Shown here: positions 9,375 to 45,400 of the stretch, one piece after another | How the letters are laid out: each line of letters begins with the position of its first letter | How positions within the stretch are numbered: position 1 is the first letter of the stretch | NCBI GenBank assembly: GCA_032718475.1 | Contig: JAUCBJ010007484.1 | Span: forward strand, 124,001 to 188,000 | Length of the DNA stretch: 64,000 nt | From: Nemertoderma westbladi | Taxonomy: Eukaryota; Animalia; Xenacoelomorpha | Reading direction: 5' to 3' | The notes under the pieces: model-generated | Databases searched by the model: none | What the model was told of the DNA's origin: nothing | The model's input: the letters and a program-made list of their open reading frames with translations, nothing else | Translations under genes and position numbers: made by a program

Positions 9375-12300
9375 TTTATGTTACTTGGTGGGATAAATAT
9401 TTCTCAATTTGACGCAACACCGCCGCGGCCGCGCTATGAGGGAGGTGAATACCGCGGCCGCTCCTAAAGCCGCAGGCCATCGCTAACTATATAGGTTAAC
9501 TTGGGATTCTGGGGGACTTTTCGATGAAGGAACTGACCAAATTTTTTTATTTTCTCACCAGGGGAGCGGCTCGGAATTCTAAGATATTAGCAACTCTAAC
9601 ATTATTAAATCTAACCTTTCGACGGACACGGCGGACAAAAAACCGTCATTTTTTCGACAATTTTAAAATTTTTTTGAAAGGCGCTCTACAGTGGCTCGAA
9701 AAAACCCTAGGTTATTGCTTAGCCGACGCCGGGATACGATAGAAGGGATTAATTAGTGAATTCGTTTTTTTTTCAAAAAAGATTACCACGCCTTTTTTCC
9801 GAAAATGTCCGTCAAAGTTGAAAAAACGGACAAAATGACTTTGCGGGATCCGCTATAACTCGGCTAATATTAATTGTACGGGGACGAAAGTAACGCGGTT
9901 GGAAAGGGGAAGAGTGGTACTACCTTCGTATCGAATGGGGGTAAGATATTTATTAAAATTTCGGGTGGAAAAAGGGGCTGTAAATTTGTACGTTTTTGTC
10001 CGTCTTTTTTGGAAAACTTATTTCCGAAATGTTTAATTGGACAACGCGGGTAGGAATCCACTAATTCTTTTTTGATACTCGTAGAAGACCATTGGGGCTA
10101 CGTTCCTATCGAATGGGGGTACAAAAAATATGTCGGCAATAGGGGCCAAAAAGGGCCATAATTTGTAAAGTAGTTTTTATCGAATAATTGTTTATTTTTA
10201 ACTTTAGTTGGTTAAGGTACATTCTATACAGTCAATATCCATACGGGGAATTCAAATATGCTATCGGTTTTGCTCCAAGGATGATATTAAAAAAATGAGG
10301 GCCAAAATTATAATTTCGCGCTTCAAACTTGCTTCGCGTGAAATCGTCTAGCTCGAAAACTACTTAACTTACGGGAGATTTGTTTACACAGACTTATAGT
10401 GCGTTAAATTATCTATCTAACAGCGTTAATCACAGCGCCGGATGTATTATACAACTGGAGCGGCAGGCGATCGTGTGAAATATAATATTTATAAAAAGGG
10501 ACGAAAAATTTTTTTTTTTAACAAATCGCTATTCCATTGTAATTTAGCGTATTGCGCCAAAAGTATCTGTAAAAAGTATCAAATTAACTCCGCTATCTTT
10601 TATCTTAACATATATAATTAAAATTACGAATTTTAAGGGTCGAAAAATATCGCGTTATTTTGGCCCTTTTTTTAATTTTTTTGGGGCCAAAAATAACCCC
10701 TTCTCAAAAGATTAAGAAAAAAATTACGGCAAAGAATATACCAATTTTATTGAATTTGGACCACCAGAACCGAAGTTAGAGCGATTTTAGTGAAAAAATA
10801 AAAATATTTTTTTTTGCAAAAAAATTAAGAATGGTCAGGTCAATATTGGATTTCGAACCCGCGAACTTAGGTTTCATTAACGTGATTGATAACCACTAGA
10901 CTATGTGACCAAGAGAATTTGAAATTTTCGAGTGACTATTTTTAAACATAAATAACTTCGGTTCTACAGGGCCGTTTGACCTGAAACTTTTTTCATTGGA
11001 TAGAGGATAGATTGTAGTGTGTGAAATAGGATAAAAGACTTGGGAAAAGACTTATGTGCACTTAGTGCAAAATGCACTTAAATAGTGAACATTTTTTCGA
11101 TATTTCAAACACTATTATTTCCAGTTCTATTCATCGTAGAATGTTATTTTTTGGATTAAAATGTAGTTTGGAATGATTTCTAACTATAATCGTAACATTT
11201 GTTTAACTTTTTATGTCTATAAAGTGACTTAAAATGTCCATGAATATGGTCCAAAATCGCAAATCCAGATTTATTAAATTGGATTTTTGACACTTTTAGC
11301 GACTGACACTTGATCATACACCATCGTAGATCGGTAGAGGATAAACATAAGTTTGTTAAATAAGAGCCACCATTACGATCTGCTAAAGTGCATTTGTACA
11401 AATAAGTGTGTAAAAGTGCAAATTTTTTAATAAGTTCAAATTATATAGTATTGGGTTATTTTCTTTGCAGATACTTTATTTTCATATTAATATGTTGTTT
11501 GAACCTTACTGAGCGCATTAGGGGATATGCGTACAAATAACCGGCCCTTATGAGGCTTCGATTGGGTAAATTAATAAAACATAAGGTTGTATAGTGTAAT
11601 ATTCTAAAAACCAGTGTAATATTAAATGCACTTTAAACAATAAATAGAGATCAAACAACAAATGGACCACACAATTAAAAACTCGCACAATTTTGTACTT
11701 ATTATATCGCTTCAAATTAATTCAACAGTGGATATTTGGGGGAAGGGGGAAGTTACAGTGTGCATTCGGGGGAAGTTTGGTGAACTGCATTTATGCAGTG
11801 AATCCAAACTTCCCCCTTTGATATATCATATACTTAAGACATGCTAGGGTGACGGGGAAACATTTGTTACTGTCACACTTTGCTTCCATTTATCCTATCC
11901 TTTATTATTACCCCAGTCAGATAAGAGATAATAAATCAGTAAAAACTAAACTAAACTGTCTTTCATGCAAACAAATTTCTAACTAAAGACGGGTGAATGA
12001 CCATGACCATGGAAATAATTTAAATATAATTGTATATCAACTATTTGGGGAGGCTTCCAAGTTAAACCCGAAAACAATTATTTTGTTACGTAAATAACGT
12101 TGTATGTTCTTCTTCCTCTCATAATAAAATATAAATGAAATATCTCAGATCGCCATGTCCTGTAACATTTCACAACCAAAATATTTAAGTGTGAAAAGTG
12201 TAGGCCTACCACACTCCGCCCAAACAACCGCAAACGCATAGCCAACAAATTTAACAAAAGGTTACATACATGTTGGGTTCATGACGAGATGAGTGAAAAT

Positions 12301-12413
12301 TGATCGCGTAATATAAAGTAAAAAATTAAGAGACGGGCTGGCTCTCCTCCACTTTCTTACCCAATTGATATGTTGTTGTAATAATCTAATATTGGGGCGG
12401 CTTTCTCTCGGTT
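9375..12413. mobile_element. Non-coding interspersed repeat, copy 1 (possibly Helentron-like non-autonomous), inserted in the LINE 3' UTR
   Basis: 9858-12413 aligns with 12983-15548. T-rich left end (TTTATGTTACTTGG), right end GGGGCGGCTTTCTCTCGGTT, no obvious TSD, no coding capacity. Confidence 0.6.
10832..10910 (-). ncRNA. tRNA-derived (Pol III A/B box) segment inside repeat copy 1
   Basis: Minus strand GGTCACATAGTCTAGTGGTTA...GGGTTCGAAATCCAATATTGACCTGACCA: A box TAGTCTAGTGG, B box GGTTCGAAATCC, GGTCA/TGACC acceptor-like pairing. Confidence 0.5.
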
Positions 12414-12974: not shown

Positions 12975-15548
12975 ATTTCGTCACTTGGCTAATATTAATC
13001 GTACGGGGACGAAAGTAACGCGGTTGAAAAGGGGAAGAGTGGTACTACCTTCGTATCGAATGGGGGTAAGATATTTATTAATATTTCGGGTGGAAAAAGG
13101 GGCCGTAACTTTGTCCGTTTTTTCCATCTTTTTTACATAATAATTATTTCCAAAATTTTTAATACGACAACGCTAGTAGGAATCTGCCAATTCTTTTTCG
13201 GAAGGTGTAACAGACCACAGGGGCTACATTCCTATCGAATGGGGGTACAAAAAATATGTCGGCAAAAGGGTCCAAAAAGGGCCAGATAATGATAAAGGAT
13301 TTATAACTAATAACTTTTGACTCTAGAAGGTTAAGGTACATTTTATACGGTTAATATTGATACGGGCAATCCAAATATTCGATTGGTTTTGCTGCGCAAA
13401 TGATATAAAAAAAATGAGGGCCAATATTAAAATTTCGCGTTTCAAACTCGCTGCGCGGGAACACGTCTAGCTCGAAAACTACTCAACGTCTGGGAGACGT
13501 ATTTAAACATTCTTATAGAGCGTTAATTTATCAATCTTTCAGCGTTAGTTACAACGCCGTAGCTATTATATAACTGGTGCGGTAGACGATCGTGTGAAAT
13601 AAAATATTTATAAAAAGGGACGAAAAATTTTTTTTTTTTAATAAATCGCACTCCATAATAATTTAGTGTATTGCGCCAAAAGTACATTTAAAATGTAGAA
13701 AATTACCTCCGCTATCTTTTTTTCTTAACATTTATAATTAAAATTATGAATTTTAAGGGCCGAAAAATATCGCGTAATTTTGGCCCTTTTTTCATTTTTT
13801 TTTGGGGCCAAAAATAACCCCTTCTCAAAAGATAGAAAAAAAATTACAGCAAAGAATATACCAATTTTATTGAATTTGGACCACCAGAACCGAAGTTAGA
13901 GCGATTTTAGTGAAAAAATAAAAATAATTTTTTTTGCAAAAAAATTAAGAATGGTCAGGTCAATATTGGATTTCGAACCCGCGAACTTAGGTTTCATTAA
14001 CGTGATTGATAACCACTAGACTATGTGACCAAGATAATTTGAAATTTTCGAGTGACTATTTTTAAACATAAATAACTTCGGTTCTACAGGGCCGTTTAAT
14101 CTGAAACATTTTTCATTGGATAGAGGATAGATTGTAGTGTGTGAAATAGGATAAAACTTGGGAAAAGACTTATGTGCACTTAGTGCAAAATGCACTTAAA
14201 TAGTGAACATTTTTTCGATATTTCAAACACTATTATTTCCAGTTCTATTCGTCGTAGAATGTTATTTTTTGGATTAAAATGTAGTTTAGAATGATTTCTA
14301 ACTATAATCGTAACATTTGTTTAACTTTTTATGTCTATAAAGTGACTTAAAATGTCCATGAATATGGTCCAAAATCGCAAATCCAGATTTATTAAATTGG
14401 ATTTTTGACACTTTTAGCGACTGTCACTTGATCATACACCATCGTAGATCGGTAGAGGATAAACATAAGTTTGTTAAATAAGAGCCACCATTACGATCTG
14501 CTAAAGTGCACTTGTACAAATAAGTGTGCAAAAGTGCAAATTTTTTAATAAGGTCAAATTATATAGTATTGGGTTCTTTTCTTTGCAGATACTTTATTTT
14601 CATATTAATATGTTGTTTGAACCTTACTGAGCGCATTAGGGGATATGCGTACAAATAACCGGCCCTTATGAGGCTTCGATTGGGTAAATTAATAAAACAT
14701 AAGGTTGTATAGTATAATATTCTAAAAACCAGTGTGATATTAAATGCACTTAAAACAATAAATAGAGATCAAACAACAAATGGACCACACAATTAAAAAC
14801 TCGCACAATTTTGTACTTATTATATCGCTTCAAATTAATTCAACAGTGGATATTTGGGGGAAGGGGGAAGTTACAGTGTGCATTCGGCATTACTTTTTTT
14901 CGGGGGAAGTTTGGTGAACTGCATTTCAGTGAATCCAAACTTCCCCCTTTGATATATCATATACTTAAGACATGCTAGGGTGACGGGGAAATATTTGTTT
15001 CTGTCACACTTTGCTTCCATTTATCCTATCCTTTATTATTACCCCAGTCAGATAAGAGATAATAAATCAGTAAAAACTAAACTAAACTGTCTTTCATGCA
15101 AACAAATTTCTGACTAAAGACGGGTGAATGACCATGACCATGGAAATAATTTTAAATATAATTGTATATCAACTATTTGGGGAGGCTTCCAAGTTAAACC
15201 CAAAAACAATTATTTTGTTACATAGTAAATAACGTTGTATGTTCTTCTTCCTCTCATAATAAAATATAAATGAAATATCTCAGATCGCTATGCCCTGTAA
15301 CATTTCACAACCAAAATATTTAAGTGTGAAAAGTGTAGGCCTACCACACTCCGCCCAAACAACCGCAAACGCATAGCCAACAAATTTAACAAAAGGTTAC
15401 ATACATGTTGGGTTCATGACGAGATGAGTGAAAATTGATCGCGTAATATAAAGTAAAAAATTAAGAGACGGGCTGGCTCTCCTCCACTTTCTTACCCAAT
15501 GGATATGTTGTTGTAATAATCTAATATTGGGGCGGCTTTCTCTCGGTT
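12975..15548. mobile_element. Non-coding interspersed repeat, copy 2, inserted in LINE ORF2
   Basis: Same right end as copy 1; left end TTTCGTCACTTGG. It splits ...VVRFIKDY from PPRHHL.... Confidence 0.65.
13952..14030 (-). ncRNA. tRNA-derived segment inside repeat copy 2
   Basis: Identical to 10832-10910. Confidence 0.5.
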
Positions 15549-16388: not shown

Positions 16389-17134
16389 TGTTGCCGTTAT
16401 TCCTGACACCAAGGGGGAAAACGCCGATGCTCTGGAGGCGGAATTTTTAGACCACTTTATTCCGGCCAGTCACCAGATATTGGGAGTGGAGAAGTATGTT
16501 ATCTGAGATGCAAGATTGCGGGTAGAGAAAAAGTTTCATTGGTTGGATATAATCTTTAATGTAACTTGAACTCTGATTGAACCTTGATTGAGAATAATTT
16601 GGGCTTCCCCACACCAATATACCAAATATTCACAATAATACACAATATAAATTCCTAAAGTAAATTATTTAATTACCCACTGTTCACTTAACTTTCAGAT
16701 TTTGACCTAACTAATGTTCCCCATTTTGTCTCGGTCCTAGTCCCGGTACTGTAGTGTCAGTGTCAGTCGATCCTTTGCTTGTCCGTCCCACCATTCCCGA
16801 ACCCTGACGGGATCGGTCATCAGGAAAGCATTTCTACTAGTGGGTTACCAACTACCGAAGTAGAAGAAGGTTATCTAGGCCTCTAGTAACTATCAGGCAA
16901 CCCTGACAGCCGAGAGTATTGCTTGATTTTACCCCCCACCCATGGCCCTTAAATATCTGAGATGGTTCCCGCGCCCCGTAAGTCGCCACGAGTTTTGCCC
17001 ATAAATCGCCTCCAGTCTATCAAATGTGCCCAAATTTTGTGTTCCCGCACCCACCTCTGATATTGGCACATTCATAAAATATAAATCCAAAAAATATGTA
17101 ACTCGCGTTATGATAAATTGAAATACCGCGAACA
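16389..17134 (-). mobile_element. 3' LTR of outer BEL/Pao element E1 (746 bp)
   Basis: Minus strand TGTTCGCGG...GGCAACA, preceded by polypurine tract TGGGGGGGAC (17135-17144). A homologous LTR start lies at 51523. Confidence 0.8.
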
Positions 17135-17313: not shown

Positions 17314-18885
17314 CTATCTCCTGCTTTGATATGCTTTCCTTTTCTTCGCCCGTCGACTTTCATCTATCGCCAGTGCTGGTACGGGGGCATCACTTGCCGA
17401 TGTGAGCATCGCCGCTGCCTGCCTCCTGGCAGCCCTTCCTCGGGGAGGTATCGAAATGAGATCTGTTCTCCTCTCCAACTCGGTGGTTCGAGCCGCCTGG
17501 AACCATTCTCCATCTCCAAACGCTCCCGTATACGAGTATAGATGTATAATCACTTCAAAGGGACCGAATAGATTGGCACTAAGCAATAAATCCACAAAGT
17601 GGAAAGGCAAGGTCTTTACCGTATGGAGGCGTTCGGGAAACGAGAAATATCCGCACGCCATCTCCTGTGCAACGTTTTGAGCGCTCAATCGGGCTCTGGT
17701 CTTTATGTGGACATTGGCGTACGTCTCGAACATAACCATGTTCCCGGTAGCTGTAACATCCTTGGTAGGACATTTAATGTTGCACCGAGGGCTCGCTGTA
17801 TGCCCACGGAAGCCGCACATTGTACAGACGTTATAAAGTGTCTGGCAAACCGCTACGTCGTGGCCCGGGGTGGCGCAATACGGACAATATACTATCCCGA
17901 GGATTTGGAAACACGGTTCGGTAACTCATGGTTTCTTACTGCGAGGACACTGCTCCGAACCGCAGCTACTGCAAACATCTAGTTGCATTTCCCGACTGAA
18001 GAATATCGGGATCTGTACGCCGGCGTAATATTCGAATTGTCTATCTTTTTGGGGATAATTGTCATAACCGGAAGCCCGCGGAATGCCGCGATGGCGCGGA
18101 GTTGGGCCTCGCTTCGGTATCCCTCCTTATGGTCCACTGGACGCATCTCAGGTGCCCGTTTCTGACGGTGAATCCACTCCGTCTGTTCCGCGTACCATTG
18201 GGTGAGTCTCATCGGGTCCTGTGGAATGTTGGGAGCCGTCGCAATAGCCGGTCGGCGAAGGGGTTCCGGAATATTCACCGAGGGAATCCCGAGGAGGTCT
18301 CTAGGGGTTGGTGGTATACTAGGGCCCTTCGTAACTTGGATAGCCAATCGCGTCCGCTGGGTACTGGTACTTGGGGTTTCCGTGGACCAATCCTCTCCTC
18401 CAGGAAACGGGTAAGGAGATAACCTCCTGCATGTATGATCGAAGTCACTGAGCGCGAGTGTAGTAACTAGTTCTCTCGCCGGACTACCGGAGCCAAGCGG
18501 AGTAGTTACACCAGAGTCCGTCGTAGGCTCAGTCGCGGCAATTCGCTTAGCGGCTGATCCGTAGGTAACTTCCAGTTCGTGTTGACGTTTCGGTGTGGGT
18601 AACAGAACACCTTTGTGTTTCTATAACTCCTCCCCTTCCGACGATACTATAGGTTCCTCTGCGCCAAGGAGATTGTTAATCGTTGGGATATCGAATGGTC
18701 CATGCAGATCCCAGGATTCGATAATGTCGAGCGTCTTGGTATCTCCCAGTGGGATATTCTGTACCGCCTTGAACGCGCGGTCGATCACCTTGTTCCATTC
18801 GTAGTCTATGAAGGCATTGGGGACCGCGCTAATAAGCTTATCGAGGGTTTTACAGATAAACTTGGCGACCGTGTACGACTCCATC
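17314..18885 (-). pseudogene. E1 accessory ORF, C-terminal half (triple zinc-knuckle region); degraded
   Basis: Manual translation CSSCGSEQC...CPYCATPGHDVAVCQTLYNVCTMCGFRGH...FETYANVHIKTRARL...CGYF aligns with the E2 ORF (CDYCGRQTH...CLYCREPSHRMGACPRLHNRCPKCHFRGH...FEEWADVGAMTRQRM...WGFF). Confidence 0.8.
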
Positions 18886-19440
18886 TGTGACGGGATCCAG
18901 GAAGGATCCCGATTTATCCGGTTGTTTAATTCACTCGTCCCCGCCGTGTGTATGAAAGGTAAAAAAGGGAATCCGTGTCGTTCGTTGTATATAATAACTG
19001 ATATAGATATAGGGTATATAGATATAGGTGTACGGATAATGTTGTCGTATACAGAAGGCGGGATACGGTAATTAAAGTCCCGGTCGGTCCTTCCCTAGCT
19101 AAACTAACTAACCTAAACTAGCACCAATATTACACTGAGATAACTGAACTGATATGATTACTGCCAAGTGGCTATATTGCACGGTTGGCCTTGTTACTCT
19201 ACCTAATCGATGCCTTTCCCCCCTCTGATTGGTTGATACCCTTGTTGGCGCCCTTTGGAGTGTTTCCGTTCACTCCACCTGTTCTCTCTGGGTTAGGGGT
19301 TTGGCCCCTGACCCTCATTGTGTGTTTCCTTCCCATTTTGTTGGGGTGGCACGAGTTGGTTGATTACCCAATCTCGTGGCTACCAATATTGCTTATCGGC
19401 TTAACTTTATGGGGTGTTAGCGGGATTGAATAAGCTAACA
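18886..19440 (-). repeat. E2 3' LTR
   Basis: Direct repeat of 32376-32926, adjacent to the PPT. Confidence 0.97.
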
Positions 19441-20338
19441 CTCCCCCCCATGCTATCTTCCCGGTGAGAAGATAGCATCCACCTTAAGTGCACTACAATC
19501 CCGCTGGATCCCGATCTAGTATCGGGTGTGGGGTGGAATTCTTTTCTCTCGGAGCCGGCTTTCCAGGCCGCTCCCTATGGGTATGATAACGCTACCCTGT
19601 ATGCCTGGCGTCTCATGTTGGGCCGATCGTGCTCACCTCTCACGTGACTTTTGTTTCCCCAACACTTTTGCCCTATCTCTTCTCCACTCTCACCCTAACT
19701 CTCTCATACCCTCGGACCTCCTCGTCCCTCACTCAGCCTCTTATTCTCCCCCCCCACACACTAGAATTGCGTCCGCACTCTCTCCGCACTTCGCACTATT
19801 GCTCCGTTCCTCAACCCCACTTCGATTGCCTCATCCCTTCTGACGAATCTCCCCCCCCCCCCTCTTGTGCCGTCGCACTCAAGAAGTGTGAAATTGTCTG
19901 GTGTCTCGTCCATAGTGCCATAGTCAGTTATCCCCCCAGTCCCAGTAGCTAATTGAGAAAGGTTGTATGACTATAGTACTTACTCCGAATGTATATTTGT
20001 AGATTACTAATTGCTACGTACGTACATACAAATTGCACTTATATGATTATTTGCATTAATTAGATTTGTACTTAATAGTTCGTACGTCCCACGCGGCGCC
20101 TTCCAGGCGTACCACGTCCAAGTCCCAGTTTCTCTCCCTCGGCCCCCGGAACCTATCTGTTCCTCTGGGAATAGTTCCCCCTGGCGTCCTCTTCCCTGGG
20201 TCGTTTCTTGGTTACCACCGCTCCTCTGGGATCCGCTTTCTGCTTTCGGACCTTCGCCGCCACCTCCTTGCTGATTCCGGTTGTTGGCTCCTTGGGCGCT
20301 GGTGTTATTAGTGCCCGATATCGCTTCGCCGGTGGCCC

Positions 20339-22708
20339 CTAAGAGTGGCCCTGTTGTCTCCCTCTGGTGGCGTCCCATAGGATCATCTTCATTGCTTGCG
20401 GTACGTGCTCCGCCAAGAAATCCCTAAACTCCCCTCGGTTCTGTGGCATCCACCTGTCCAAATATCTTTGTGTGTTCATTACTCCGGCATACGACGCCGC
20501 CATCGCTACCTCTTGATAGGTAAACGGTAGCCTCCGCTTTATGATTTCCATGTGAGCCTCCTGATTGATAAGGAAGAAACCCCACTTGAACTCCTGGGCC
20601 TTCATGCGCTGGCGCGTCATGGCCCCGACGTCGGCCCACTCCTCGAATCTCCTGAACTTCTCTTCGTCGTCCATCCAGTCGCACTGGCGTCCGTAGTGTC
20701 CCCGAAAGTGGCACTTTGGACATCGGTTATGCAGTCGTGGACACGCCCCCATCCTGTGGCTCGGTTCTCGGCAGTAGAGACAAGAGGTTCCCTTTTGGAA
20801 CCGGTACAGGCAGCTCCTTTCCTGGTGGGTCTGTCTCCCACAGTAGTCGCAGCCGAGTACCAATGTCTCCCGCCACACGTCGTCTCTCGTCCCAAGCGAT
20901 CTCCGCGGTCTGTGGAGTCGCTGGTAGGCGAATTTCTCCATGTTGGTGTCCCTGTCTACGTCGATCTCTCCGCCCCTCTCGGGCATTGTCTCCCCGAATA
21001 CTATCCTTGGTGCCGTCCCCGGTTGCTCGCCCAACCTGATAGTGCTCCCCGCGAAATCCATCGCCGGCTCCTCGTGCACCCAGGTCCGCTTGCCGGATCT
21101 GTTCCAGAAGGCCCTCGCCCCACTGGCCGTCACCACCCTTCCGCCAACCCAGTCCGTGTCCGAGTGGCCTATCCTCTCGATGGGCGGCATCTCTCCGAAC
21201 TCGTTGCCGTCCTCCTCCTCCTCTGGCAGTGGCTCCAACCCCGGTATCCCGATGGATCCACTATGTCCCTTCCCGCCTTGGCTCTCGCCCGTAGCTCTCC
21301 ATCCCTCTAGCTCCCTTAACTTCCTTGGCGGTTGGTTGCCTTCGGCGCCCGCTGGTATGGGCATCGCTTGCAACCCTGACGTCGACTGTTTCAGCGATCC
21401 CACCATCCATCCCAGTTCTCGCCCTAGAGACTCCCCCGAAATCCCTGACGAAGTCCAATGAAATTCGTCTAAGCCTGCCTGTTCCTCGAAGCCGTAACTC
21501 TGTGTCCTGGCCTCCTCTTCCCTCTCCTCTGCTTCTATCCTCTCCCGTCTAGCGACTTCTTCCAGTCGCTTTGCTTCTCGTCTATCCGTTTCTAGCTGCT
21601 CCCATCTCTGATACGGCGTATCTGTCTCCCCGTCTACCAGATGCCGGCTATTGTAGTACACCGACTCGCCCTTCAGCCCCGGGTGGTCTACCAGACCGTC
21701 GAAGGCCATTTTAAAGGCTCTCCTGTAGCTTAGGGGTGATCCCGATAACAGAAATGCCCCTGGTTCCCTCTCGATGACCACGGTCATAAATAAGTTAAGC
21801 AAACTTATCATCATCCAATCTTCCTGCAGGATATATCGCTTCTGATATACCTTTATCGCTCCTCTGCGGAATTGATATACCTCTTGCTTTCCCGGTCTCA
21901 CTCCCCACTTTAGCGAGTTCACTAGTTCTGCTCGGTATTCTTCCCTGAACTTCCCCCAATCCATCGGTTTGTGGCACACGAGCCCCAATAATTGGCCCAT
22001 TGCCACCGCCCCGCATTGGCCTGTGTTTTCGACTACCCCCAACCCATCCGGTGCCGTCATAGCCATAAAGACCTTCTGCATATCCAGGAGGTTGGTGGCG
22101 TTCGGACCGATGATCCTCTCCGCATCCTCGCGAATCGCCGATCCTACTTTCGTCGTCGACTTCTCTCTTACCAAGACTTGTACCGCTTTCGGTAACCGGT
22201 TTAATTTCGGCCCGTCCTTCTTCCCATACATTCCTAGATCAAATAAGAAGATGTCCCCATTTGGCGCGGCCAAATGTAGGAGTATGGTCCTGGCCGACCC
22301 CGCCAATCCTCGTCTCGAACCCGCCTCATCTTCCACGGTTCCCTCGTCGTCTAGGATCATATATCCTCCTCTGTTGACGGACTCTATGAATCTCTTCCAG
22401 TCCTTCCTCGGTGATTCCCTCGGGTACTTCGGAATCCCGAACTTCGCCTCGTCCCCTTCCACCACGTAGTGGAAGTGTTGGAAGATCGCGTTGTCCAGCG
22501 ACGGCGTCCCGTAGGTCCCGACCAGCCGCTGTTCGTGCATCTCCCGGAAGTGATCCTGCAGCGCTCGTGCCGCGTGACCCCTTTCCAACCTCTCGTAGTA
22601 TCCTCTCGTCTTCTCTTCCGGATGCCTCTCGGTGAAATCCACCAGCATCTCCTTTCCTCCTGACTCCGCCTTTCTCTTTCTGATCAATTTGCTCGCCATT
22701 CCGAACAC
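20339..22708 (-). CDS. E2 accessory protein: putative DEDDy 3'-5' exonuclease plus three zinc knuckles (first ATG 22699)
   Basis: Open 789-aa frame. ExoI-like MILDDEG, LLHLA..GDIFLFDL, LPKAVQVLV..STTKVGSAIRED (ExoII-like), LLDMQ, QKRYILQED (ExoIII-like). C-terminal CDYC..H..C, CLYC..H..C, CPKC..H..C. Confidence 0.75.
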   Translation of the reverse strand: MFGMASKLIRKRKAESGGKEMLVDFTERHPEEKTRGYYERLERGHAARALQDHFREMHEQRLVGTYGTPSLDNAIFQHFHYVVEGDEAKFGIPKYPRESPRKDWKRFIESVNRGGYMILDDEGTVEDEAGSRRGLAGSARTILLHLAAPNGDIFLFDLGMYGKKDGPKLNRLPKAVQVLVREKSTTKVGSAIREDAERIIGPNATNLLDMQKVFMAMTAPDGLGVVENTGQCGAVAMGQLLGLVCHKPMDWGKFREEYRAELVNSLKWGVRPGKQEVYQFRRGAIKVYQKRYILQEDWMMISLLNLFMTVVIEREPGAFLLSGSPLSYRRAFKMAFDGLVDHPGLKGESVYYNSRHLVDGETDTPYQRWEQLETDRREAKRLEEVARRERIEAEEREEEARTQSYGFEEQAGLDEFHWTSSGISGESLGRELGWMVGSLKQSTSGLQAMPIPAGAEGNQPPRKLRELEGWRATGESQGGKGHSGSIGIPGLEPLPEEEEDGNEFGEMPPIERIGHSDTDWVGGRVVTASGARAFWNRSGKRTWVHEEPAMDFAGSTIRLGEQPGTAPRIVFGETMPERGGEIDVDRDTNMEKFAYQRLHRPRRSLGTRDDVWRETLVLGCDYCGRQTHQERSCLYRFQKGTSCLYCREPSHRMGACPRLHNRCPKCHFRGHYGRQCDWMDDEEKFRRFEEWADVGAMTRQRMKAQEFKWGFFLINQEAHMEIIKRRLPFTYQEVAMAASYAGVMNTQRYLDRWMPQNRGEFRDFLAEHVPQAMKMILWDATRGRQQGHS

Positions 22709-23184
22709 TCACTCGCTCACCTGCAAGGTGGTGCCTTACCAAGGCGCAATACAGATGAGTGATGTATCTAGGATGTTCTGTACGGTCCGATAATGGCCTA
22801 TTTCTTACTTAACTGCACCTTTTAACCTAAATTATTACTAATTAATTTTGAAGCTAGTAAATGAGCGTAATTTACAATTTCTGTCCGTTACTTTTATTAT
22901 GTTCTAGAATAACTTTCCTTGTGTTGCCATTATTTGTAACTTTCAGCCCTATTCTATTTATTTGTAATTTTAATTTTAATTCTACTGTCCTACTACTTAC
23001 TATTGCCTATGGATTGTTCTATTCTCTAATCCACATTCTGGCCTACTCTGTGGGCCTGTGCAGTACAGCAGTATGCGTCGTGTGGCCACACGATTTACCC
23101 AGCTGTACTCATATGCCCCCCTTTCGTTGCTAACTGCTAACTAATATCTATATCTTATATACCCTTTTACCTCTTACTCTCTCT

Positions 23185-23785
23185 CTCTAACTAACGGTAC
23201 TACGTACCCTCTAACTCTAGTTCTAACTAACTAACGGTACTACGTACCCTCTAACTCTTCTCTAACTAACGCTACTACGTACCCTCTAACTCTTTAACTA
23301 GCGGTACTACGTACCCTCTAACTCTCTAACTAGCGGTACTACGTACCCTCTAACTCTCTAACTAGCGGTACTACGTACCCTCTAACTCTCTAACTAGCGG
23401 TACTACGTACCCTCTAACTCTCTAACTAACGGTACTACGTACCCTCTAACTCTCTAACTAACGGTACTACGTACCCTCTAACTCTCTAACTAACGGTACT
23501 ACATACCCTCTAACTCTCTAACTAGCGGTACTACGTACCCTCTAACTCTCTAACTAGCGGTACTACGTACCCTCTAACTCTCTAACTAACGGTACTACGT
23601 ACCCTCTAACTCCTCTCTAACTAACGGTACTACGTACCCTCTAACTCTCTAACTAACGGTACTACGTACCCTCTAACTCCTCTCTAACTAACGGTACTAC
23701 GTACCTCCTAACTAACTAACTAACTCTAGGTACTACGTACCTTCTTACTGACTAACTTTTGCCTACTAACTGCGTACCTACTATG
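23185..23785. repeat. ~32-bp tandem array between integrase and accessory ORF in E2
   Basis: Unit CTAACTA(A/G)CGGTACTACGTACCCTCTAACTCT; period 32 at 23341/23373. Confidence 0.93.
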
Positions 23786-23906: not shown

Positions 23907-26900
23907 CTAAGGTGCCCCTTCTAGCAGACAGCATTTTCCCACAGCTCTCCTGTAGGTTTTTCTGTCCTTCGCACCTATCTTACCACCTATCCGCACTTCT
24001 ACCGATCGGACTCTTCCGTCCTCGTCGGAGTAAGTGCCTACAACTCTCGCCAACCGCCACTGGTTGTTGATGATAGTATCATCCGTAACGATTACGAGAT
24101 CTCCCTCTCTTAACTCCCTATTTGGCTTCCTCCACTTACTCCTTTTATGGAGTGTGGGTAGGTATTCCTCGACCCAACTCCTCCAATACTCTGCGCTTAT
24201 TGCTTTAGCGACTTTCCAACTTTGGCGGAAGTGTATGTCATCTGGGTCTACACCCCGCATATCGATGGTCACTGGCCTTTCCATCAGGAAATGGCTAGGC
24301 GTCAGCACGTCTAATGACTCAGGGTCATCATTCTCCGGGTATAGCGGTCTGCTATTAATGATCCCCTCGCACTTCGCAAGCACTGTCCGTAAGACGCCCT
24401 CAGTGACCATGTGGGTGTTCATTAGCTTCATCATTAGACGCTTAGAACTGCCCACCAGTCTCTCGACGCATCCTAGTGTATGTGGTGCATACGGCGTCCT
24501 TCTCTCCCACTTTACTTGTCGTCGCCTCATGGCTGCCCTGACTTCTTCTCCTTCCAAGATGTCCAAGGCCTCTGTCATCTCATTCTCTGCGCCCACAAAG
24601 TTGGTGCCGTTGTCGCTGTATATCACTGCGATCGTCCCACCTTTGCGGTCCCTAAATCTTTCTAAGGCATTAATGAATGCTGATGCGGTTGCATCTTGGG
24701 CTAGTTCTATCCCTATCGCCCGCGTGTTGTTGCATACGAAGATGATACCGTAGCGTTTCTCCGTGTGCCGCATCACCTTTATCTTTATCGGCCCGAACAT
24801 GTCCACACCGCAATGCGTAAATGGCGGGTCGTGCTGTCTTACTCTACTCGCTGGTAGTGGCGCCATCTCTTGTATGGCTCGCTCCTTCTTCGCTCGCCGG
24901 CAGGTCTGGCACTGCCCCACCACCGCTTTTACCTTCTTCCTCAACTGTTTGACCCAAAAGGTCCTCCTTATCTCGGTGAGGGTTCAGTTGGTGCCCCCGT
25001 GCAATATCGATTTATGGGAGTCCCAGATAATCTGGTGAACTATTGGCGATCCTGTTGGAATGATGATGGGTTTCGGTGGTACGATTATGCTATTGTTGTA
25101 TCCCACCCTAGAGTTCATTACTAGAATCCCGTCGTCATTAAGTTGTGGCGACAGCGCGATCAGCTCGCTGTCCCGTCGGAGGTGTTGTTGGTTACCGACG
25201 CGTTCTACCTCGTCGCTATAGTTCTTCCGTTGTTCATAGCGGATGATTGCCTTAGCCGCTCCTTCCAGATCTATGGTTGTCCTGATCTTCTTGTCCTTGC
25301 CAACTCCCGCGAGGAAATTCCCGAAGGCTCTCCAGTACGCCACTAGTTTCTTGGTCTTATACCAACTAGAATTGTAGCTGAGGAGTTTATCCGTCGGGTT
25401 ATCGCACAGTTCTCGTTTTGGTTGCACATCCCTAATCTCCCTCACCATCTGGGAGTATATCTCTTCTCCCTCTGAATCTCCCTCTTCTCCTTCTGACACT
25501 GCTTTTGAGCCCGGGTCCACCTTTTTCATTGGCGGCCAGGCCTCCTTATCGCTCAGAAATTGTGGCCCATGTTGCCACAATACTTCCTTCTTCAAGAAAG
25601 TGTGGCGTACCACGCCCCTCGACAATAAGTCCGCTGGGTTCTCGTCCGTTGGGCAGTAGTGCCACCTTTCCAGTTCTGTGCTCGCCGTTATTTCGTCCAC
25701 TCTATTTGCGACGAATATTGGGTATCTCATCCTTTCGTTATGTAGCCAACCAAGTACTACCATGGAGTCCGTCCAGTAGTGTGTCTCCACTATGTTGGGA
25801 ATAGTATCCACTAGGTAGGCTGTGGCTCTAACTCATAGTTTCGCAGCTGTCAATTCTAATTTGGGAACTGATGCTGAATCTGGCGGCGTTGACTTTGCTT
25901 TGCTAAAGGCTAGTCTGGGCTTATGAGCCCCCTCTCGTTGTACTAAGTAGAGTGCCGCTCCGTACGCCTCCAACGACGCATCGGAGAACATGTGTAGGTC
26001 CAGGTTCGTCATGTTCCCATCCGGGAAATACACTCGTGGCATGTTGTATGTTCCCATCTTCTCCAAGTCTCCTGTCCACTTACTCCATTGTTTCTTGATT
26101 TCCTCTGGTACCTCTACGTCCCACTCATCCTTCAATTTGTATACTCTCTTGAGTATCTGTTTCCCCGTAACTAATAATGGGGATGCTAGGCCTAGGGGAT
26201 CGTATGTCCTTGCTATATACGATACATAGCCCCTCTTCGTGTGGATGTCTGCACCCGCCTTGCTCAGCTGATACTTCAGTTCGTCTGTCTCTCTGTTCCA
26301 CACGATTCCCAATGCCTTCTGTTGAGATTCTGTTCTCTTATTCGCCATGTCCTGCCCTTTGGCTGTCGTGGGATTATCCATGGTCGATTTTGGTCTCTTG
26401 TCCTCTATCGCCTTGATAAATTCTTCCGAACTGGATTGGAATTTGGTCAGGTTAAAGCCGGATCCTTTCAGGATGTCGCGAACCTCGCGCCCCGTGTCCA
26501 GTATCTCCTTAACCGTATTTCCAGACTCCATTCCGTCGTCTACGTAGAAGCCACGTCAACTCATATCGACGGCCCTAGTGCTGTATCTATCTTCCTTCCC
26601 CTTCACTGTGTCTCTGACTGCCATAGTCGTCGTAAATGAAGACGACTTGGCTCCCATGTTCTGTACTACCATCTTATATGCCGGTATTATCGACGGTTCT
26701 TCCTCGCCGTTATACCATAAGAAGCGCTGACTGTCGCTATCTTCCTCCGTTACACGGACTTGGTTGAACATGCCTTCTATGTCACACGTGAAGGCGTGTT
26801 TCCCATTCCTAAATCTAAGTAGCACCTCTATGCCCGAATTGTATATGTTTGGGCCTTCTAACAGGTAGTCGTTTAAGCATTTTCCGTCGGTCTTTGCCGA

Positions 26901-28478
26901 TGCGTCGACTACCATCCGTAGTTTACCTTTCTTTGGGTCTAAAGCCACGTGGAGTGGCAGGTAATATGTCCTGTCCGTGTTCGGCTTGTCGACTGGTAAC
27001 TCCACGGCCCATCCTTTCTCGACGTACTTCTTAATCGTTCTGTGGATGTACTCATTCTTCTCGGGGCTCCGTTTTAGTGTTTGTTTCAGCTTGCGGAGTC
27101 TCGTGAGTACCATCCCTCTATTATCGGGCAGCGGTATCTTCGGTAGTTTCCATACCATTCCTATAGTATACCGCCCCTCATTGCATGTCATCGATTCCTC
27201 CACGCTTTGTAAAGCCTGCTTGTCTTCTACCGAGGTCCCGACCCCGGTCTCCTTTAGTCCCTCGAAATCTGGCCTGAGCAGTCTTTTGAGCTGCTCCTCT
27301 GCTCCCTCATCACCCATTTCCTGCATTGTTCCCGCGAACATGCATCCTGATGTCTCCGACATCCTAAATGGTATCTTACTCTTGATTGGACCACTCAGCG
27401 TCCACCCGAATGGTGTTAATATCGCCACCGGGTCACACTGCTTGTCTTCGCCGAAGACCGTTTGCATTCTTTCGTGGGCCGTTGGGCAGTCCATTCCTAC
27501 TATAATGGATACCTTCCTAACGTCCACATGTGGGATTGAGAAGTCAATGTCGTCCAGGAACTTATATTGCTCGACCTCGATGTTGGTTGGCCGCCTGGCA
27601 TTGATATTAATTGACTCTATCACTTGGATGGGGTCGATGGTTGCCCCATAGTCGCATCCCGGTGCCACTGCTGCAATTGCGCACCGTCCTGTTCTCATCT
27701 CCAGGATCTCATCTTTGATAGAGATGGTTGTTACCGCCATTCTGCTTGGCCTCATTCTCAATCCTATCTCTTCGGCCACCCATTCCTCGACTAATGTGAA
27801 GGCAGCTCCACTATCAACCAGCATTAGTGTTGTTACTGATCGATTGCCTTCCCCAATCACTCGCACGGGTACTACTCCAAGTAACACCGTTCCTCTCTTC
27901 TTCGCCCCTACTGTGCTCGTCGCCATCGTCTGGCCTCTCCTCTGACCAAATTTTACCGGCTTCTCCTTGCACTCCCTTGCTCTATGTCCACTCATTACAC
28001 ATCGCGAGCAGATTTTGTTGCTCAATGCATAATCTATCTGATCTTGCCTAGGTAGCGCCTGCCAGTACCTGCAGTTCATGGTTTGATGAAGCGCATTTGC
28101 GTGTAGCTGGCATTTGCTCTTTGGGTCGTAGCCCTCTTTATACAGTGCATTACGTATCGCAGCTGCGTTTGTACCAAAGTCCCTACTATTCTTATTGTTT
28201 GGATTCGGCCTACTGGACGTACTGGGGTTATATTTATTCGTGTTGTTATTGTTCCCCTGTCCGTTCCATGGTGTTGTCTTATCTTCGGCTAGCTGTGGAC
28301 TTGCAGTCCCCTGCGTCGCTGCATATGGCAATGATTGCCTGAGCCTCGGTAATGCGTTTGATGTATTGTGCTCTGGTTTCGGTCTATGGTAATCCGTCTT
28401 CGGTCCCTTTCCCAGGCTATCTTCGCTATAGACTGGGTCAGTTATTAGTTCAGCCTCGTAGTTTAAGAAGCTTGACAT
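23907..28478 (-). pseudogene. pol: E2 gag C-terminus plus pol (protease, RT, RNase H, integrase) with in-frame stops
   Basis: Zinc knuckle CSRCVMSGHRAREC; PR LVDSGA; RT YYLPLH, LRMVVDAS, DIEGMF, FYVDD; RH FSDASLEAYG, PKLEL, WTDS, NPADLLSRG; INT GVDMFGP, SDNGTNF, ERLV. Four track ORFs share one frame, separated by TGA at 26556, 25833 and 24984. Confidence 0.95.
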
Positions 28479-31400
28479 TTCTTCTAAACCCGGTTCCGCA
28501 CCCTTCTTGTCTCGAGTGGAGAAAGCGATCTTCCTCCACTTGTTGCGCAGCTAGTTTGGTAGTGCCTGTGCTATCGTGGTGATGTTATTGGACGCGTTGA
28601 GCTCGTATGGCGCGTCTAGCGTCTTCAGCACGATTAGCGCCTTTTCGACCTTGTTAGCGAACGTCTTAATGCTAACGGGATTATCCTGTAGGCCACCCGA
28701 TGTTATGCCTCTCAGTGTCTGTCTGATGATCTTGGCCGGGTGCCCGTATTCCCTATCCAGTGCCCGCCATGCTGTCGTGAAGCCGCCCTCTATTCCTTGA
28801 TATTGCCTCACGATGTCGTATGCTGGGCCTCCTGTGTATACTTGCAGATACTTTAGGCACTCCGCCTGCGTCAAGTTTTTTGTAATTATTTCGTTACTAT
28901 ACATGCGCCGAAACTGTAGATATTCTTCCGGCCTACTCCCATCGAATTTGAATGGTTCCACGGGTGGTAACTCGATCCTCGTTTTCAATGCATCGATCAA
29001 CGTGGCCATCCCCATCGCCTGCACTTCCAATGGGTTCAATGGATGCTGTATAGTTTCTCCTGTCTGGTGCGGTTCGTCCGTCCTATTTCTTGATCTTCTT
29101 TGACTTGGGTATGTCATCGGGGGTAGCGGCCCCCTCCATATCTCTGTGTCACACGACCTATTTTCATCCAAGGGTCTCGTTGTTCTCGCTCCTATCGGGG
29201 TATATTGTTGATATTGTGATGGGGGAATGTCACCCTGTCCCCCCCCCCCACCGGTATGTTTGGTACTGGGGTTGATGTTAATATGTTGGGGCCCATACAC
29301 CTATCCGCAATAATTCCCCCCTCCCCTGGGTATATGTTATGTCCCTGCATGCTGTAGTCATACTGCTGTACTGGTACCGGTATAGGCCTATCAACTTCTG
29401 GCCTACTCGTCGGTATGTATTCCGCGACTTCCGGGTTTAATCCCATTGTCCGCGCTATCCTATCCCCTACATTGCCTCTCTCAGTATGGCCTATGGTATG
29501 TGCAGTAAGGCCTACAGTATGTCATACAGTCTGCATGTGTTGCTCGGGATCGAAGTTTATTCTTCTCGAATAATCCTCCCCGCGGCTACCGTATTCTCGA
29601 TCGGTAGGTACATTCCGTCGGAAAGTTTCTCTTCGACCTCCCTCTCTACTGTTCTCATCTTCGTACCGGTACATCGTGTACCCTTCCATCGGCGCGTAAT
29701 GCACCTCGCCAGGTCGCATCTCTCCGGGGCGACGGCAATCTCCCGGAGTCCGACCCCACTGACTCTCCGTTCTCATCTCGACTACCGACGGCTCGCTATC
29801 TGTCCTCACTCTTCTATCGTTCGCGGCGATACTTTTACTACTGTCTTCTCTTCTTCTCCTTTCAGTGTAGTATTCCCGCTCGTGAGATCTCTCGTCGACC
29901 TCCCGGTTAAACCCCACTGTTCTTCTTCCCTCTTCTGATCGGGCTCGACGCTTCGTCCGCCCTCTCACAACGTCAACCTGTCTCTCTCTGCTCGGTCGCA
30001 CGCCGCTGGGGATACTCACAATCCCCCTATTACTCTCCGTCGCCGGGTGTTGCGGTTTACCTATTTCGGCCCGCGCATTATCCGCTGACGGCTGTGGAGC
30101 TCTCCCTGCCCCCCCCCCTTTCGCCGCTAACTCGCTGTTGTGGGGCCCCTGTAGCCCCCCCCCCCCCCCCCCACTCGCCATATCTAACTTCGCCATCCCT
30201 CACCCCGCTACTATATCCCTCTCTAGTCGACACATCTACCCTACCGCGGTCGGGTCTATTCACCCCCGCCTCTCCCTCTGCTATTGCGTGGCCTACCAGG
30301 CCCTCTACTCCCTGCCTACCAACTACGTGGCCTTCCAGGCCCCCACCGGGTCTATCCAACCCAGCCGCTCCCTGCCTACCAACTACGTGGCCTACCAGGC
30401 CCTCTCTGGGTTGGCTCAATCCCGCCACCTCCGACCTACCAATTGTACGGCCTACCAGGCCCCCGTCTGCCCAGCCATACACGCCCGACGTGTTCACGTT
30501 AATAGCACCCACATTGGAAACGGAATTAATTTGTTCGTTTGAAACAAAATCATTTGAATTATTTTGTAAATTCGGACTTGGATCATTATTTAAATTATTT
30601 GAATTATTTTGCACGTTCAAATTGAAATTATTATTTGTACTTAAATTTAAATTACTGCTACTGGGTAAAGCATTATTTGCTGCAATAAAGGTTTGGTTAG
30701 AGTTATCCCATACGGTACTATTAATATTAACGACGTCTACTATAGCATTATTATTACCCCCCCCGCCCGTACGGTCACACCAGTCTTGGGTCTGTCGTGC
30801 GGTCCCTGTAAGTGGGGTATTAATAAATGTATCCACGGCCCCTGGCTCCTCGAAAATACTCGAGCTAGCCCCACTCTCAGACGCCCCTACTCGCGCCAGT
30901 TCCCGCTCGCGCGTATGTACAGCTTTGTACCCTGTAAGCTCACCCTGACGTTTCTCTAGTTCCTTTTGCTCACACTCCTTCCTTGCCATTCTCTCCTTAC
31001 ACTCCCGTGCGTTCCGTTCGGCCAATTCCAACTCTCTTCTAGCCCCCTCCCTTCGTCTCGCCTCATGCTCTCAGTATTCGTTTTCCTTTCTCTCCTCGCG
31101 CTCTCTGCACTCGTTTTCCTCTTTCGCCTCACGTTCCCTACTTTCCGCCTCACGCTCCCTACGTTCCGCCTCACGCTCTCCGCGCTCATTTTTCTCTCTC
31201 GCCTCGCGCTCTTCTTGTTCCTTCCTCCCTACTTCCTCACACTCCCTAAGGCTTCTCGCGGCCCTTTCGGCCCTCTCCCCGGTTTCCTTAATCAACGCCA
31301 TTTCCCTCTCTAGCAGCACTCTCCCCTCCTCTAACCGTCTACCTACTTCCCTTTGACCTTGCTCTATTAGATTGAGACGGTACGCGGCATTTATATCTCT

Positions 31401-32312
31401 CACCCGTCTTTCTTTCACAGAGGATGTAGCAGACTTATCGGTTGTAACGGATTCCCTCCGCCTCCCCGTCCTACTAACCTTCCCCCGCCTCCCGGAACTT
31501 CCTCCGACCGACGAGGCTGAATCCTCGGGGTTAACCTCGGATTCGTCCTCCTCAGGTCTCTCCCAACCCACTAATTTTACTCCCCGGGCATCGACTAAGT
31601 ACGGCCCTACGTACACTACGCTAGGTTCTATACCCCCATACCGCCACAAGTCATACAGTTCCTCGGCAACCCCTCTTGCTCTCTCCTCGGCCAGTCCTCT
31701 TTGCCCGAAGCGCATTAGATAATAAAAGTGTCTATTCGACTCACCTAGTCTTCTCTTTAGTTTTACCTTGTCTATTGTCGCCCCTCCTCTGGCCTCCTCT
31801 AATAGTCTCCGGGTCGCATTGTAGGCCCGTCGAAGTCAATCAGAAACCCCGACGTCCTCGTCGCCGACCTCTCGTCCGTCTCTCCGGGTCCGGCGTCGTA
31901 CCGTCGGCCCCACCGTCGCCGTTTCGGTGGGCCGCTCGTCGCTCTCAGCCCGTGGCTGGCCGGCGACATCGGTACCGACATCTCCTCCATCTCTTTGGGT
32001 CCGGCGTCGTACCGTCGGCCCCACCATCGCCGTTTCGGTGGGCCGCTCGTCGCCCTCGGCCTGTGGCTGGCCGGCGACATCGGTACGTCGACCCACGTCT
32101 CGTGTCGACTCGTCTCCATCTCCCTCCGTCTCGCTCTCTCCTTCTCTTGGCTCGACCTCGGGTTCCAGGCGGCCCCCCTCATCCTGGACTGCCGGATGAC
32201 CCGTTACCGATGGGTCCGGCGTTGTGGGCCTGTACCGCCTGGTTGCGGCCTCGCGGATCGTTGATTCTTCGTCCGGGGTCCGCGTCGGCGTTGTCTCTCT
32301 CAACTGGCTCAT
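28479..32312 (-). pseudogene. gag: E2 gag with long N-terminal extension (coiled coil, Asn-rich tract, DUF1759-like domain)
   Basis: Track ORFs from 31836-32312 down to 28551-29300; FDGSRPEEYLQFRRMY...KYLQVYTGGPA...LDREYG; homologous to E3 gag. Confidence 0.85.
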
Positions 32313-32375
32313 CTCGCTTGGTGGTTGGTGGCTGGTGGTTTAGCTGGCTAGGGGAACAGTTCCGATTTTAATTAC

Positions 32376-32926
32376 TGTGACGGGATCCAGGAAGGATCCC
32401 GATTTATCCGGTTGTTTAATTCACTCGTCCCCGCCGTGTGTATGAAAGGTAAAAAAGGGAATCCGTGTCGTTCGTTGTATATAATAACTGATATAGATAT
32501 AGGGTATATAGATATAGGTGTACGGATAATGTTGTCGTATACAGAAGGCGGGATACGGTAATTAAAGTCCCGGTCCTTCCCTAGCTAAACTAACTAACCT
32601 AAACTAGCACCAATATTACACTGAGATAACTGAACTGATATGATTACTGCCAAGTGGCTATATTGCACGGTTGGCCTTGTTACTCTACCTAATCGATGCC
32701 TTTCCCCCCTCTGATTGGTTGATACCCTTGTTGGCGCCCTTTGGAGTGTTTCCGTTCACTCCACCTGTTCTCTCTGGGTTAGGGGTTTGGCCCCTGACCC
32801 TCATTGTGTGTTTCCTTCCCATTTTGTTGGGGTGGCACGAGTTGGTTGATTACCCAATCTCGTGGCTCCCAATATTGCTTATCGGCTTAACTTTATGGGG
32901 TGTTAGCGGGATTGAATAAGCTAACA
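32376..32926 (-). repeat. E2 5' LTR
   Basis: Direct repeat of 18886-19440. Confidence 0.97.
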
Positions 32927-37847: not shown

Positions 37848-38099
37848 TGTTAGCTTATCCAATTCCGCTAACACAAACCCATAGAGTGAGCCATTAAGCA
37901 ATATTGGGAGCACGAGGTTGATTACCAATATCAACCTCGTGTTACCCCAATAAAGTGGGAAGGGAAGGAGAAACACACAATGGAGGTCAGGGGCCAAACC
38001 CCTAACCCAAAGAGAACAGGTGGAGTGAACGGGAACACTCCAAAGGGCGCCAACAGGGGTATCAACCAATCAGAGGGGGGAAAGGCATCGATTAGGTAC

Positions 38100-38156
38100 A
38101 GCAATAAGGCCACCGTGCAATATAACCAGTTACCAGTAATCATACCAGTCAGTTAT
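38100..38156 (+). promoter_or_regulatory. Putative LTR promoter (TATA-like plus TCAGTT initiator)
   Basis: TATAAC at ~38121 and TCAGTT about 27 nt downstream; the E2 LTR has a TATAGC...TCAGTT counterpart. Confidence 0.4.
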
Positions 38157-45355: not shown

Positions 45356-45400
45356 TTCGGTACACAGTTTTGTAGTAAGTTTTTTTTTATCTCAGTAGTT

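Follow-up and report, generated by a model that had tools for sequence, protein, structure and literature searches.

BEL/Pao long terminal repeat (LTR) retrotransposons are described as carrying gag, pol and sometimes env. Which gene, then, occupies the place behind pol in a BEL/Pao element of Nemertoderma westbladi (Xenacoelomorpha), and what might it do for the element? We analysed a window of 64,000 nucleotides (nt) from this animal (assembly GCA_032718475.1, contig JAUCBJ010007484.1, positions 124,001 to 188,000 of the forward strand). On its minus strand lies a 14,041-nt BEL/Pao LTR retrotransposon, here called element 1, whose third open reading frame (ORF3, 20339–22699) almost certainly encodes a DEDDy exonuclease-fold domain followed by three CCHC zinc knuckles. 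ORF3 is inherited together with pol in a BEL/Pao lineage, and here a whole lineage keeps a large enzyme gene that is not env. Since dozens of distant relatives hold the gene in the same position, it is probably an ancient tool of the BEL/Pao group for handling RNA, one that had not been described before.

ORF3 and the element that carries it

ORF3 comprises 786 amino acids from its ATG and 789 from stop to stop. As an earlier note made from the sequence had described, it is an open frame on the strand of the element, between the integrase and the polypurine tract and inside LTRs bounded by a target site duplication (TSD). It begins 1,208 nt beyond the pol stop, in a different frame from pol and past a tandem array of a 32-bp unit in 17.3 copies (23183–23757), and ends about 900 nt short of the polypurine tract and the 3′ LTR. 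The same note called the extra gene intact, which holds for both ORF3 domains; the extreme C-terminal tail is probably not intact, and gag-pol is broken. All read depth in three public sequencing runs (X1–X3) differs at 20341, within the ORF3 stop codon, and this stop appears to be peculiar to the window copy. Without it, the frame stays open for 61 further codons, and the tail of ORF3 is therefore probably incomplete.

The exonuclease-fold domain, recognised by motifs, profile and predicted fold, covers residues about 60–350 (21650–22520, minus strand). The DEDDy motif order that had been proposed is found at D117-x-E119 for ExoI (22351–22343), D192 for ExoII (22126–22124), D206, and Y289-x3-E293 for ExoIII (21835–21821). 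In ExoIII, E293 replaces the last Asp of the expected Y-x3-D, as it does in 10 of 31 homologues, and D294 follows directly. A charged helix (about 361–402) and an acidic/Gly-Pro linker (about 409–612), in which the predicted local distance difference test (pLDDT) score stays below 50 over most of the length, lead (20870–21620, minus strand) to the three knuckles, which had also been noticed behind the exonuclease. These start at C617, C640 and C660, all with the canonical CX2CX4HX4C spacing as read off the sequence, end at C673 and continue into a helical extension, conserved as well, that reaches about residue 740 (20480–20851, minus strand). The knuckles are the best conserved portion of the ORF3 family. 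No transmembrane stretch is present in ORF3 (top 19-residue hydropathy 1.3); it is predicted to have a nuclease fold instead of an env-like anchor or a fusion glycoprotein.

The identification relies on comparisons at the family level. The single ORF3 sequence gave no match in Pfam or, by phmmer, in the PDB, and single-sequence AlphaFold gave no confident structure (mean pLDDT 36). Word-based protein searches with ORF3 found nothing, although HMMER did, and such blanks carry no evidential weight. Searching 1.84 billion representative proteins with HMMER returned 80 that matched ORF3, mostly via the knuckle region, and the 31 long enough for the N-terminal domain were used for alignment A1. A query-free N-terminal profile of these 31 homologues, not fully blind since its segments were cut with the A1 columns, gives ORF3 82.4 bits, as against 3.8 bits or less for shuffled sequences (96 of 200 reported by HMMER). 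With the family profile, ExoI, ExoII and ExoIII all aligned with EXD2 (E = 1.7e-12 and 1.2e-14), and both domains matched TbRND in two stretches (E = 6e-10 and 5e-9), followed by WRN (9e-7) and Egalitarian (0.003). The top PDB match of a knuckle-only profile was TbRND, with a weak E-value of 0.0096. Standard annotation misses ORF3, as most family members have no Pfam match.

The N-terminal domain is predicted to adopt a DnaQ-like DEDDy 3′–5′ exonuclease fold, the outcome that the earlier note had anticipated. AlphaFold on a 78-row alignment was confident at about residues 100–240, 280–310 and 615–745, with the linker at low confidence. The modelled N-terminal domain matches Nibbler EXO with Z 13.0–13.2 (root-mean-square deviation 3.3–3.5, 202 aligned), diDNase/NrnC with 12.4–12.9, TbRND with 12.4, RRP6 with 12.0, and polymerase and WRN exonucleases with 11.5–12.6; RNase D and Egalitarian are also among the fold matches. 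Foldseek placed Egalitarian–RNA complexes on top (E = 2e-5), with Exd1 also near. Because all fold matches lie within about 2 Z units, the DEDDy subgroup of ORF3 cannot be named. Structural identity to the EXD2/WRN/Nibbler–Mut-7/Egalitarian–Exd1 group is only 12–18%, and no donor can be named.

Element 1 has LTRs of the form TG...CA at 32376–32926 (5′, 551 nt) and 18886–19440 (3′), one substitution and one 4-nt indel apart, a 5-bp TSD, GATGG, at 32927–32931 (5′ copy) and 18881–18885 (3′ copy), and a polypurine tract at 19441–19449, all on the minus strand. Its gag-pol (23907–32339, minus strand) has the order of protease, reverse transcriptase (RT), RNase H and integrase with Pao-type domains: DUF1759 (E = 4e-11), aspartyl protease, RT, Peptidase_A17 (2e-36), rve and DUF5641 (2e-24). 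The RT was recognised via tblastn similarity to loci whose pol matches RVT_1, and three relatives (L013, L046 and L069) hold the full Pao-type domain set inside one ORF. The gag-pol frame of element 1 is interrupted by in-frame stops at 31838, 31073, 28553, 26558, 25835 and 24986 and by two frame changes, near 30.1–30.2 kb and 29.3–29.5 kb; the pol stop itself (23907–23909) is TAG. Of the traits listed by the ICTV (the international committee for virus taxonomy) for BEL/Pao, element 1 lacks a tRNA primer site, the size of 4.2–10 kb and env as third gene, which are typical traits and not the basis of the assignment.

The primer-binding position (32364–32375, minus strand) is without a TGG-type tRNA site. 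These first 12 nt 3′ of the 5′ LTR can pair at 11 of 12 positions with position 358 of the element's own LTR (about 32569), and a second short helix lies beyond. An 11/12 pairing was reached by 37 of 2000 shuffles, and it is a possible self-priming signature. We rejected a role of ORF3 tied to self-priming, since relatives with TGG-type primer sites (L013, L023 and L068) carry the gene just as the window element without one does. The near-identical LTRs contrast with the broken gag-pol and with at least 23 copy-specific differences in ORF3; a template that was already defective may have been mobilised in trans to give element 1, or the LTRs of element 1 may have been homogenised. No Rfam match was found within positions 16000–52000 of the window.

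Linkage to pol, selection and catalytic states among relatives

Relatives were collected by a scan with a degenerate knuckle-motif pattern, which fits 77 of 103 collected proteins. The scan yielded at least 120 metagenome stretches and 12 in GTDB contigs, and all locus counts given here are among the matches listed. After 40 loci with only about 660 nt had been set aside, 92 were analysed, 84 of which reach at least 20 bits on the knuckle profile; only L035 and L043 overlap with the library proteins at more than 70%. The linkage to BEL pol that the earlier note had put forward as a check was borne out: a BEL integrase lies upstream on the same strand in 32 of the 35 loci with at least 4 kb upstream (the exceptions are L005, L012 and L022), and in 43 loci regardless of length. 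The window's Ty3/gypsy RT and integrase had no upstream match in any of the 92 loci. At 80% identity the 43 integrases fall into 35 clusters, at 50% into 12. Among the 63 loci that have 1.5 kb or more upstream, an exonuclease domain was detected in 58, and a richer profile added three more; L047 and L059 have no detectable exonuclease domain and retain long open ORF3s with knuckles. Quick integrase and exonuclease trees of 36 rows have 20 of 33 splits in common (Mantel rho 0.90, 0 of 2000 permutations). In both trees the window element sits on a long branch, and so does its RT among the compared loci in a quick mixture RT tree. Searches of viral contigs by protein or motif found no ORF3 relative.

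Several relatives have unusual forms or settings. In the ORF3s of the sister elements L047 (3341–6532) and L059 (6880–9651), the place of the exonuclease is taken by an acidic region of low complexity together with a different conserved stretch of small size. L005, L015, L043 and L051 have oriented ORFs of 1328–1592 codons, which are very long ORF3s with uncharacterised N-terminal extensions, and L005 has no BEL pol in its 4.5 kb upstream. The library protein P0001 has two knuckle modules. BEL/Pao–ORF3 loci inside bacterial GTDB metagenome-assembled genomes (L123, L124, L127, L128, L130 and L132) are probably misbinned host DNA.

Selection on the gene was assessed among copies and between loci, as the earlier note had suggested, and both comparisons point to constraint. 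Variants of the window copy came from public runs, seen as Logan contigs, in which depths are not copy numbers. In the nuclease core, 28 of 33 segregating sites fall at third codon positions (p = 1.5e-9, with 40 listed of 61 variant sites), and the excess persists in the worst case (29 of 61, p = 0.015). Among the variants listed, the core has no indel and its catalytic codons change at third positions only. Six of the seven core differences peculiar to the window copy lie at codon positions 1–2, as expected for a decaying copy. Between loci, the ratio of nonsynonymous to synonymous substitution rates (dN/dS) of the exonuclease domain is 0.08–0.49 for five pairs with intact sites, a sixth being saturated, and 0.04–0.46 for six pairs of a catalytically dead clade, with pairs sharing rows and dS high. 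Profile, fold, linkage and selection together support the proposal that a DEDDy exonuclease with three knuckles is an extra gene of BEL/Pao elements.

The four acidic positions are retained in 18 of the 31 library homologues. When the 50 loci that encode both domains in a single ORF are scored, 28 retain all four, 19 have lost at least one and three are not covered. Nine of the 28 acid-complete loci, which form a clade, have His for the ExoIII Tyr (L010, L077, L079, L123, L124, L127, L128, L130 and L132). The dead clade comprises 15 loci, with Shimodaira–Hasegawa-like approximate likelihood ratio (SH-aLRT) support of 100 and 99 in the integrase and exonuclease trees, and 12 of its rows are recovered in the RT tree. 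All 10 of its scorable members are without catalytic residues, accounting for 10 of the 19 losses. Purifying selection on this dead clade and the knuckle-only L047 and L059 speak against a simple nuclease. Because selection persists where catalytic residues are lost, and because knuckle-only relatives exist, we favour RNA binding as the core job of ORF3.

The pol–ORF3 junction and possible roles of ORF3

The pol frame closes with TGA-C, often as TGA-CGG or TGA-CAA, in 14 of 40 loci. The frame is continuous from pol into the ORF3 exonuclease in 10 of these 14 UGA-C loci versus 2 of 26 others, where five of the 26, in which the integrase frame breaks early, were kept in the count. A stem of at least 7 bp starting from about +10 to +15 occurs in 14 of 14 versus 2 of 26 loci, and a TCGG(A/T) bulge motif in 11 of 14 versus 1 of 26. 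In six UGA-C loci picked for equal length, 10 of 14 hairpin pairs show compensatory changes, and 96% of the hairpin cells pair versus 36–48% when slid, a score reached by 0 of 500 shuffles; these statistics ignore relatedness. RNAalifold found no consensus structure in 12 UGA-C junctions, whose alignment was distorted, and the z-scores of single-sequence folding are modest (median −1.26 for UGA-C versus 0.03). UGA-C with a hairpin resembles viral type II readthrough contexts and +12 structures, as outlined in the accessible part of PMC13517186. We regard the junction as a candidate readthrough signal with covariation support.

We prefer, at somewhat less than an even chance, the explanation that ORF3 is an accessory protein that binds RNA and works on the complex of the element's own RNA, 3′ trimming being optional. 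The grounds are the TbRND-like architecture, the knuckles that outlast catalysis and even the nuclease domain, and the in-frame fusion to Pol in some lineages. The knuckles would grip the element's own single-stranded RNA, while the nuclease domain would bind RNA 3′ ends on the element complex and, where catalytic, trim them. Such trimming would help the element RNA to survive host 3′-end surveillance and to be packaged. One candidate activity is the removal of host-added tails; uridylation is reported to restrict LINE-1 and RNA viruses (PMC6232586, in part). The knuckles of TbRND supply RNA binding and boost trimming, according to the accessible text of PMC7797062, and the exonuclease domain of Egalitarian is described as binding RNA (10.1101/2025.08.03.668247, in part); by analogy, the dead clade may resemble a pseudonuclease RNA adaptor such as Egalitarian. 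In the UGA-C relatives, readthrough could yield a Gag-Pol-ORF3 product that enters the particle, and window-type ORF3 would be expressed from an RNA of its own, either spliced or started internally. A more far-reaching account is possible but rather unlikely: a deep and widespread BEL/Pao lineage would long have carried a TbRND-like RNA 3′-end enzyme as a counter-defence against tailing and small-RNA silencing, delivered to the particle by programmed readthrough of pol and turned into a pseudonuclease adaptor in one clade. Should ORF3 act against uridylation or small-RNA defence, it would add a rare case of an anti-silencing protein encoded by an animal retrotransposon.

Several points weigh against an accessory protein of this kind. 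With a TAG stop, ORF3 in another frame and a 1.2-kb spacer, the window element is without a readthrough junction, and so are 26 of 40 relatives; fusion can therefore not be the general way into the particle. The loci behind the readthrough counts are related by descent and thus not independent, and the stem was defined with the UGA-C group already in view. Because the knuckle motif was the seed of the scan, part of the knuckle conservation comes from the search itself, and relatives that have only an exonuclease are invisible to it. The linker is far longer than that of TbRND. EXD2, WRN and polymerase exonucleases act on DNA too, and these matches do not pinpoint the substrate.

A different activity, a free trans-acting silencing suppressor that trims or destroys host piRNAs, siRNAs or their precursors, the idea that the earlier note put first, is unlikely though not negligible. 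The nearest folds include the small-RNA trimmers Nibbler, TbRND and Exd1, the retention of the four acidic residues in most of the scored loci agrees with an active nuclease, and window-type ORF3 is a separate gene. Mature piRNAs, however, are 2′-O-methylated and PIWI-bound, and a bulk nuclease is poorly suited by catalytic loss in a conserved clade, by knuckle-only ORF3s and by low-level fusion to Pol, although dead members could act through RNA sequestration. Overexpressed TbRND depletes guide RNAs (PMC7797062, in part), and arenavirus ExoN suppresses innate sensing, as stated in the accessible part of PMC7968707. We treat a free anti-piRNA nuclease as a rival and not as the lead, because catalytic losses have occurred under selection and knuckle-only relatives exist. 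Improbable, in our judgement, is an Egalitarian-like or CERV-like adaptor whose main job is the transport or nuclear export of element RNA, catalysis being incidental. The lead of Egalitarian–RNA complexes in Foldseek, a nematode LTR element that has an export factor of its own, encoded by a spliced mRNA (PMC10309623, in part) and the basic stretches at the ORF3 N-terminus and in the 61 codons past the stop all suit such an adaptor, but a complete active site in 28 of 50 loci, across 12 integrase clusters at 50% identity, suggests selected catalysis in most lineages.

The shared fold of polymerase and WRN exonucleases would also suit an exonuclease that proofreads RT or trims cDNA or primer ends inside the particle, where readthrough would bring it along with Pol. 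Proofreading by nidoviral ExoN is linked with genome growth, and element 1 exceeds the 4.2–10 kb of its family. Most readthrough-type loci nevertheless fall in the catalytically dead clade, and the gene is present with and without a TGG-type primer site and hence not tied to one priming mode; we consider this role quite improbable. It is hardly credible that ORF3 is a chance ORF, or a passenger derived from a fragment of the host that was captured recently. The blank Pfam and word-based searches with the single sequence would fit it, whereas the third-position excess, the conserved place behind integrase in 32 of 35 long loci, the congruent trees and the dN/dS values largely refute it.

The rest of the window and comparison with known systems

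A second case of the gene in the window is an older, broken ORF3 homologue, which element 1 has split by its insertion. The 5′ pieces of this homologue, with ExoI and ExoII regions, lie at 32931–33805 (minus strand), where the query-free profile scores 11.8 and 34.7 bits, and its 3′ pieces at 17314–18884 (minus strand), with the knuckle domain at about 18003–17587 (31% identity, E = 2e-15); the piece at 18884–18624 has no score on the query-free profile. A G-run and TG at 17134 follow. An older BEL-type integrase at 36378–37883, on the same minus strand, was probably linked with the broken homologue, from which a Ty3/gypsy-type integrase fragment (36016–35111) separates it. The stretch 16825–17134, which comes after the G-run, forms an inverted, 79%-identical pair with 51524–51835 and may be the 3′ LTR of the older homologue's element.

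A close sister BEL/Pao element, element 2, occupies 37847–50948 on the plus strand (TSD ATCGG, LTRs 99% identical, about 70% amino-acid identity in gag–protease). RT, RNase H, ORF3 and most of integrase are missing from it; it retains tandem arrays, a polypurine tract and a hairpin, and is a non-autonomous derivative. Because most of pol is also gone, it is no proof that autonomous sisters do without ORF3. A young Ty3/gypsy element (40413–45679, minus strand) is nested in element 2; its 260-nt LTRs are 99.6% identical and have TATA...TATA ends, and its TSD is GTCGG. At the end of the integrase of this Ty3/gypsy element stands a PWWP domain (E = 7.6e-7), not a chromodomain. Elsewhere, the window holds satellite arrays of 52, 23 and 29 bp and a TACC microsatellite (3696–5682, 6225–8463, 57483–62411 and 52197–52367), and a 2.6-kb direct duplication (93%; 9858–12413 and 12983–15548) near LINE-type RT fragments.

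Element 1 shares LTRs, polypurine tract, the order of pol domains and a third gene after pol with env-carrying Belpaoviridae (PMC8742986 and PMC3118150). It differs in that the third gene encodes a soluble nuclease–knuckle protein, in its 14 kb and in the absence of a tRNA primer site from the window copy. For the family, gag, pol and env are the only genes given in the ICTV profile, with sizes of 4.2–10 kb (PMC8742986), and the word exonuclease is absent from the main text, as far as accessible, of a survey of BEL/Pao in 62 genomes (PMC3118150). Our literature search brought up no article on an exonuclease ORF in BEL/Pao elements, and PMC8220671, PMC5029228 and PMC6431247 contributed nothing further; because subscription journals, Repbase and GyDB lay outside the search, an earlier database note is possible. 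The plant Ty1/copia element SIRE1, a Sirevirus, likewise has a third ORF behind a single stop, with an env-like gene expressed via stop-codon suppression (as cited in the accessible part of PMC2829016); its product is env-like, whereas here UGA-C and a two-helix hairpin are found in relatives only and not in the window copy.

Among cellular proteins, TbRND has the most similar architecture, a DEDDy exonuclease followed by tandem CCHC knuckles, and both domains were matched (PDB 7c42/7c45; accessible part of PMC7797062). TbRND, as described there, is cellular and U-tail specific, with four knuckles and a 28-residue linker, while ORF3 is mobile and has three knuckles with a helical extension and a linker of about 270 residues. 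ORF3 may work like TbRND, but we do not file it as a TbRND-type member, because it does not have the short linker by which knuckle 1 is fixed against the exonuclease in that type. The EXD2/WRN/Nibbler–Mut-7/Egalitarian–Exd1 group consists of cellular genes with active and catalytically dead members, as in the ORF3 family; within it, EXD2 is the best match by sequence (E = 1.2e-14) and Nibbler by fold (Z 13).

The closest precedent is the set of DEDDy ORF3s of bdelloid rotifers, whose Juno and Vesta elements are Ty3/gypsy-like. The parallel with captured bdelloid exonucleases that the earlier note mentioned was found in the literature: Juno and Vesta LTR retrotransposons and Terminons carry DEDDy ORF3s, the function of which was untested there (PMC5408684, in part). 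Like ORF3 here, these are non-env third ORFs after pol, RNase D-like, with the catalytic residues kept. The bdelloid DEDDy ORFs are described as recent, as acquired at least twice and as exchanged between retroelement types, whereas the present gene follows the integrase tree of a deep BEL/Pao lineage. The accessible part of that paper describes no tandem knuckles, dead clade or readthrough for the bdelloid set, and we liken the two by description only. With active, His-switched, dead and exonuclease-less versions in one phylogeny, the BEL/Pao family turns the question raised by the bdelloid elements, namely what a DEDDy ORF does for a retrotransposon, into a testable comparison.

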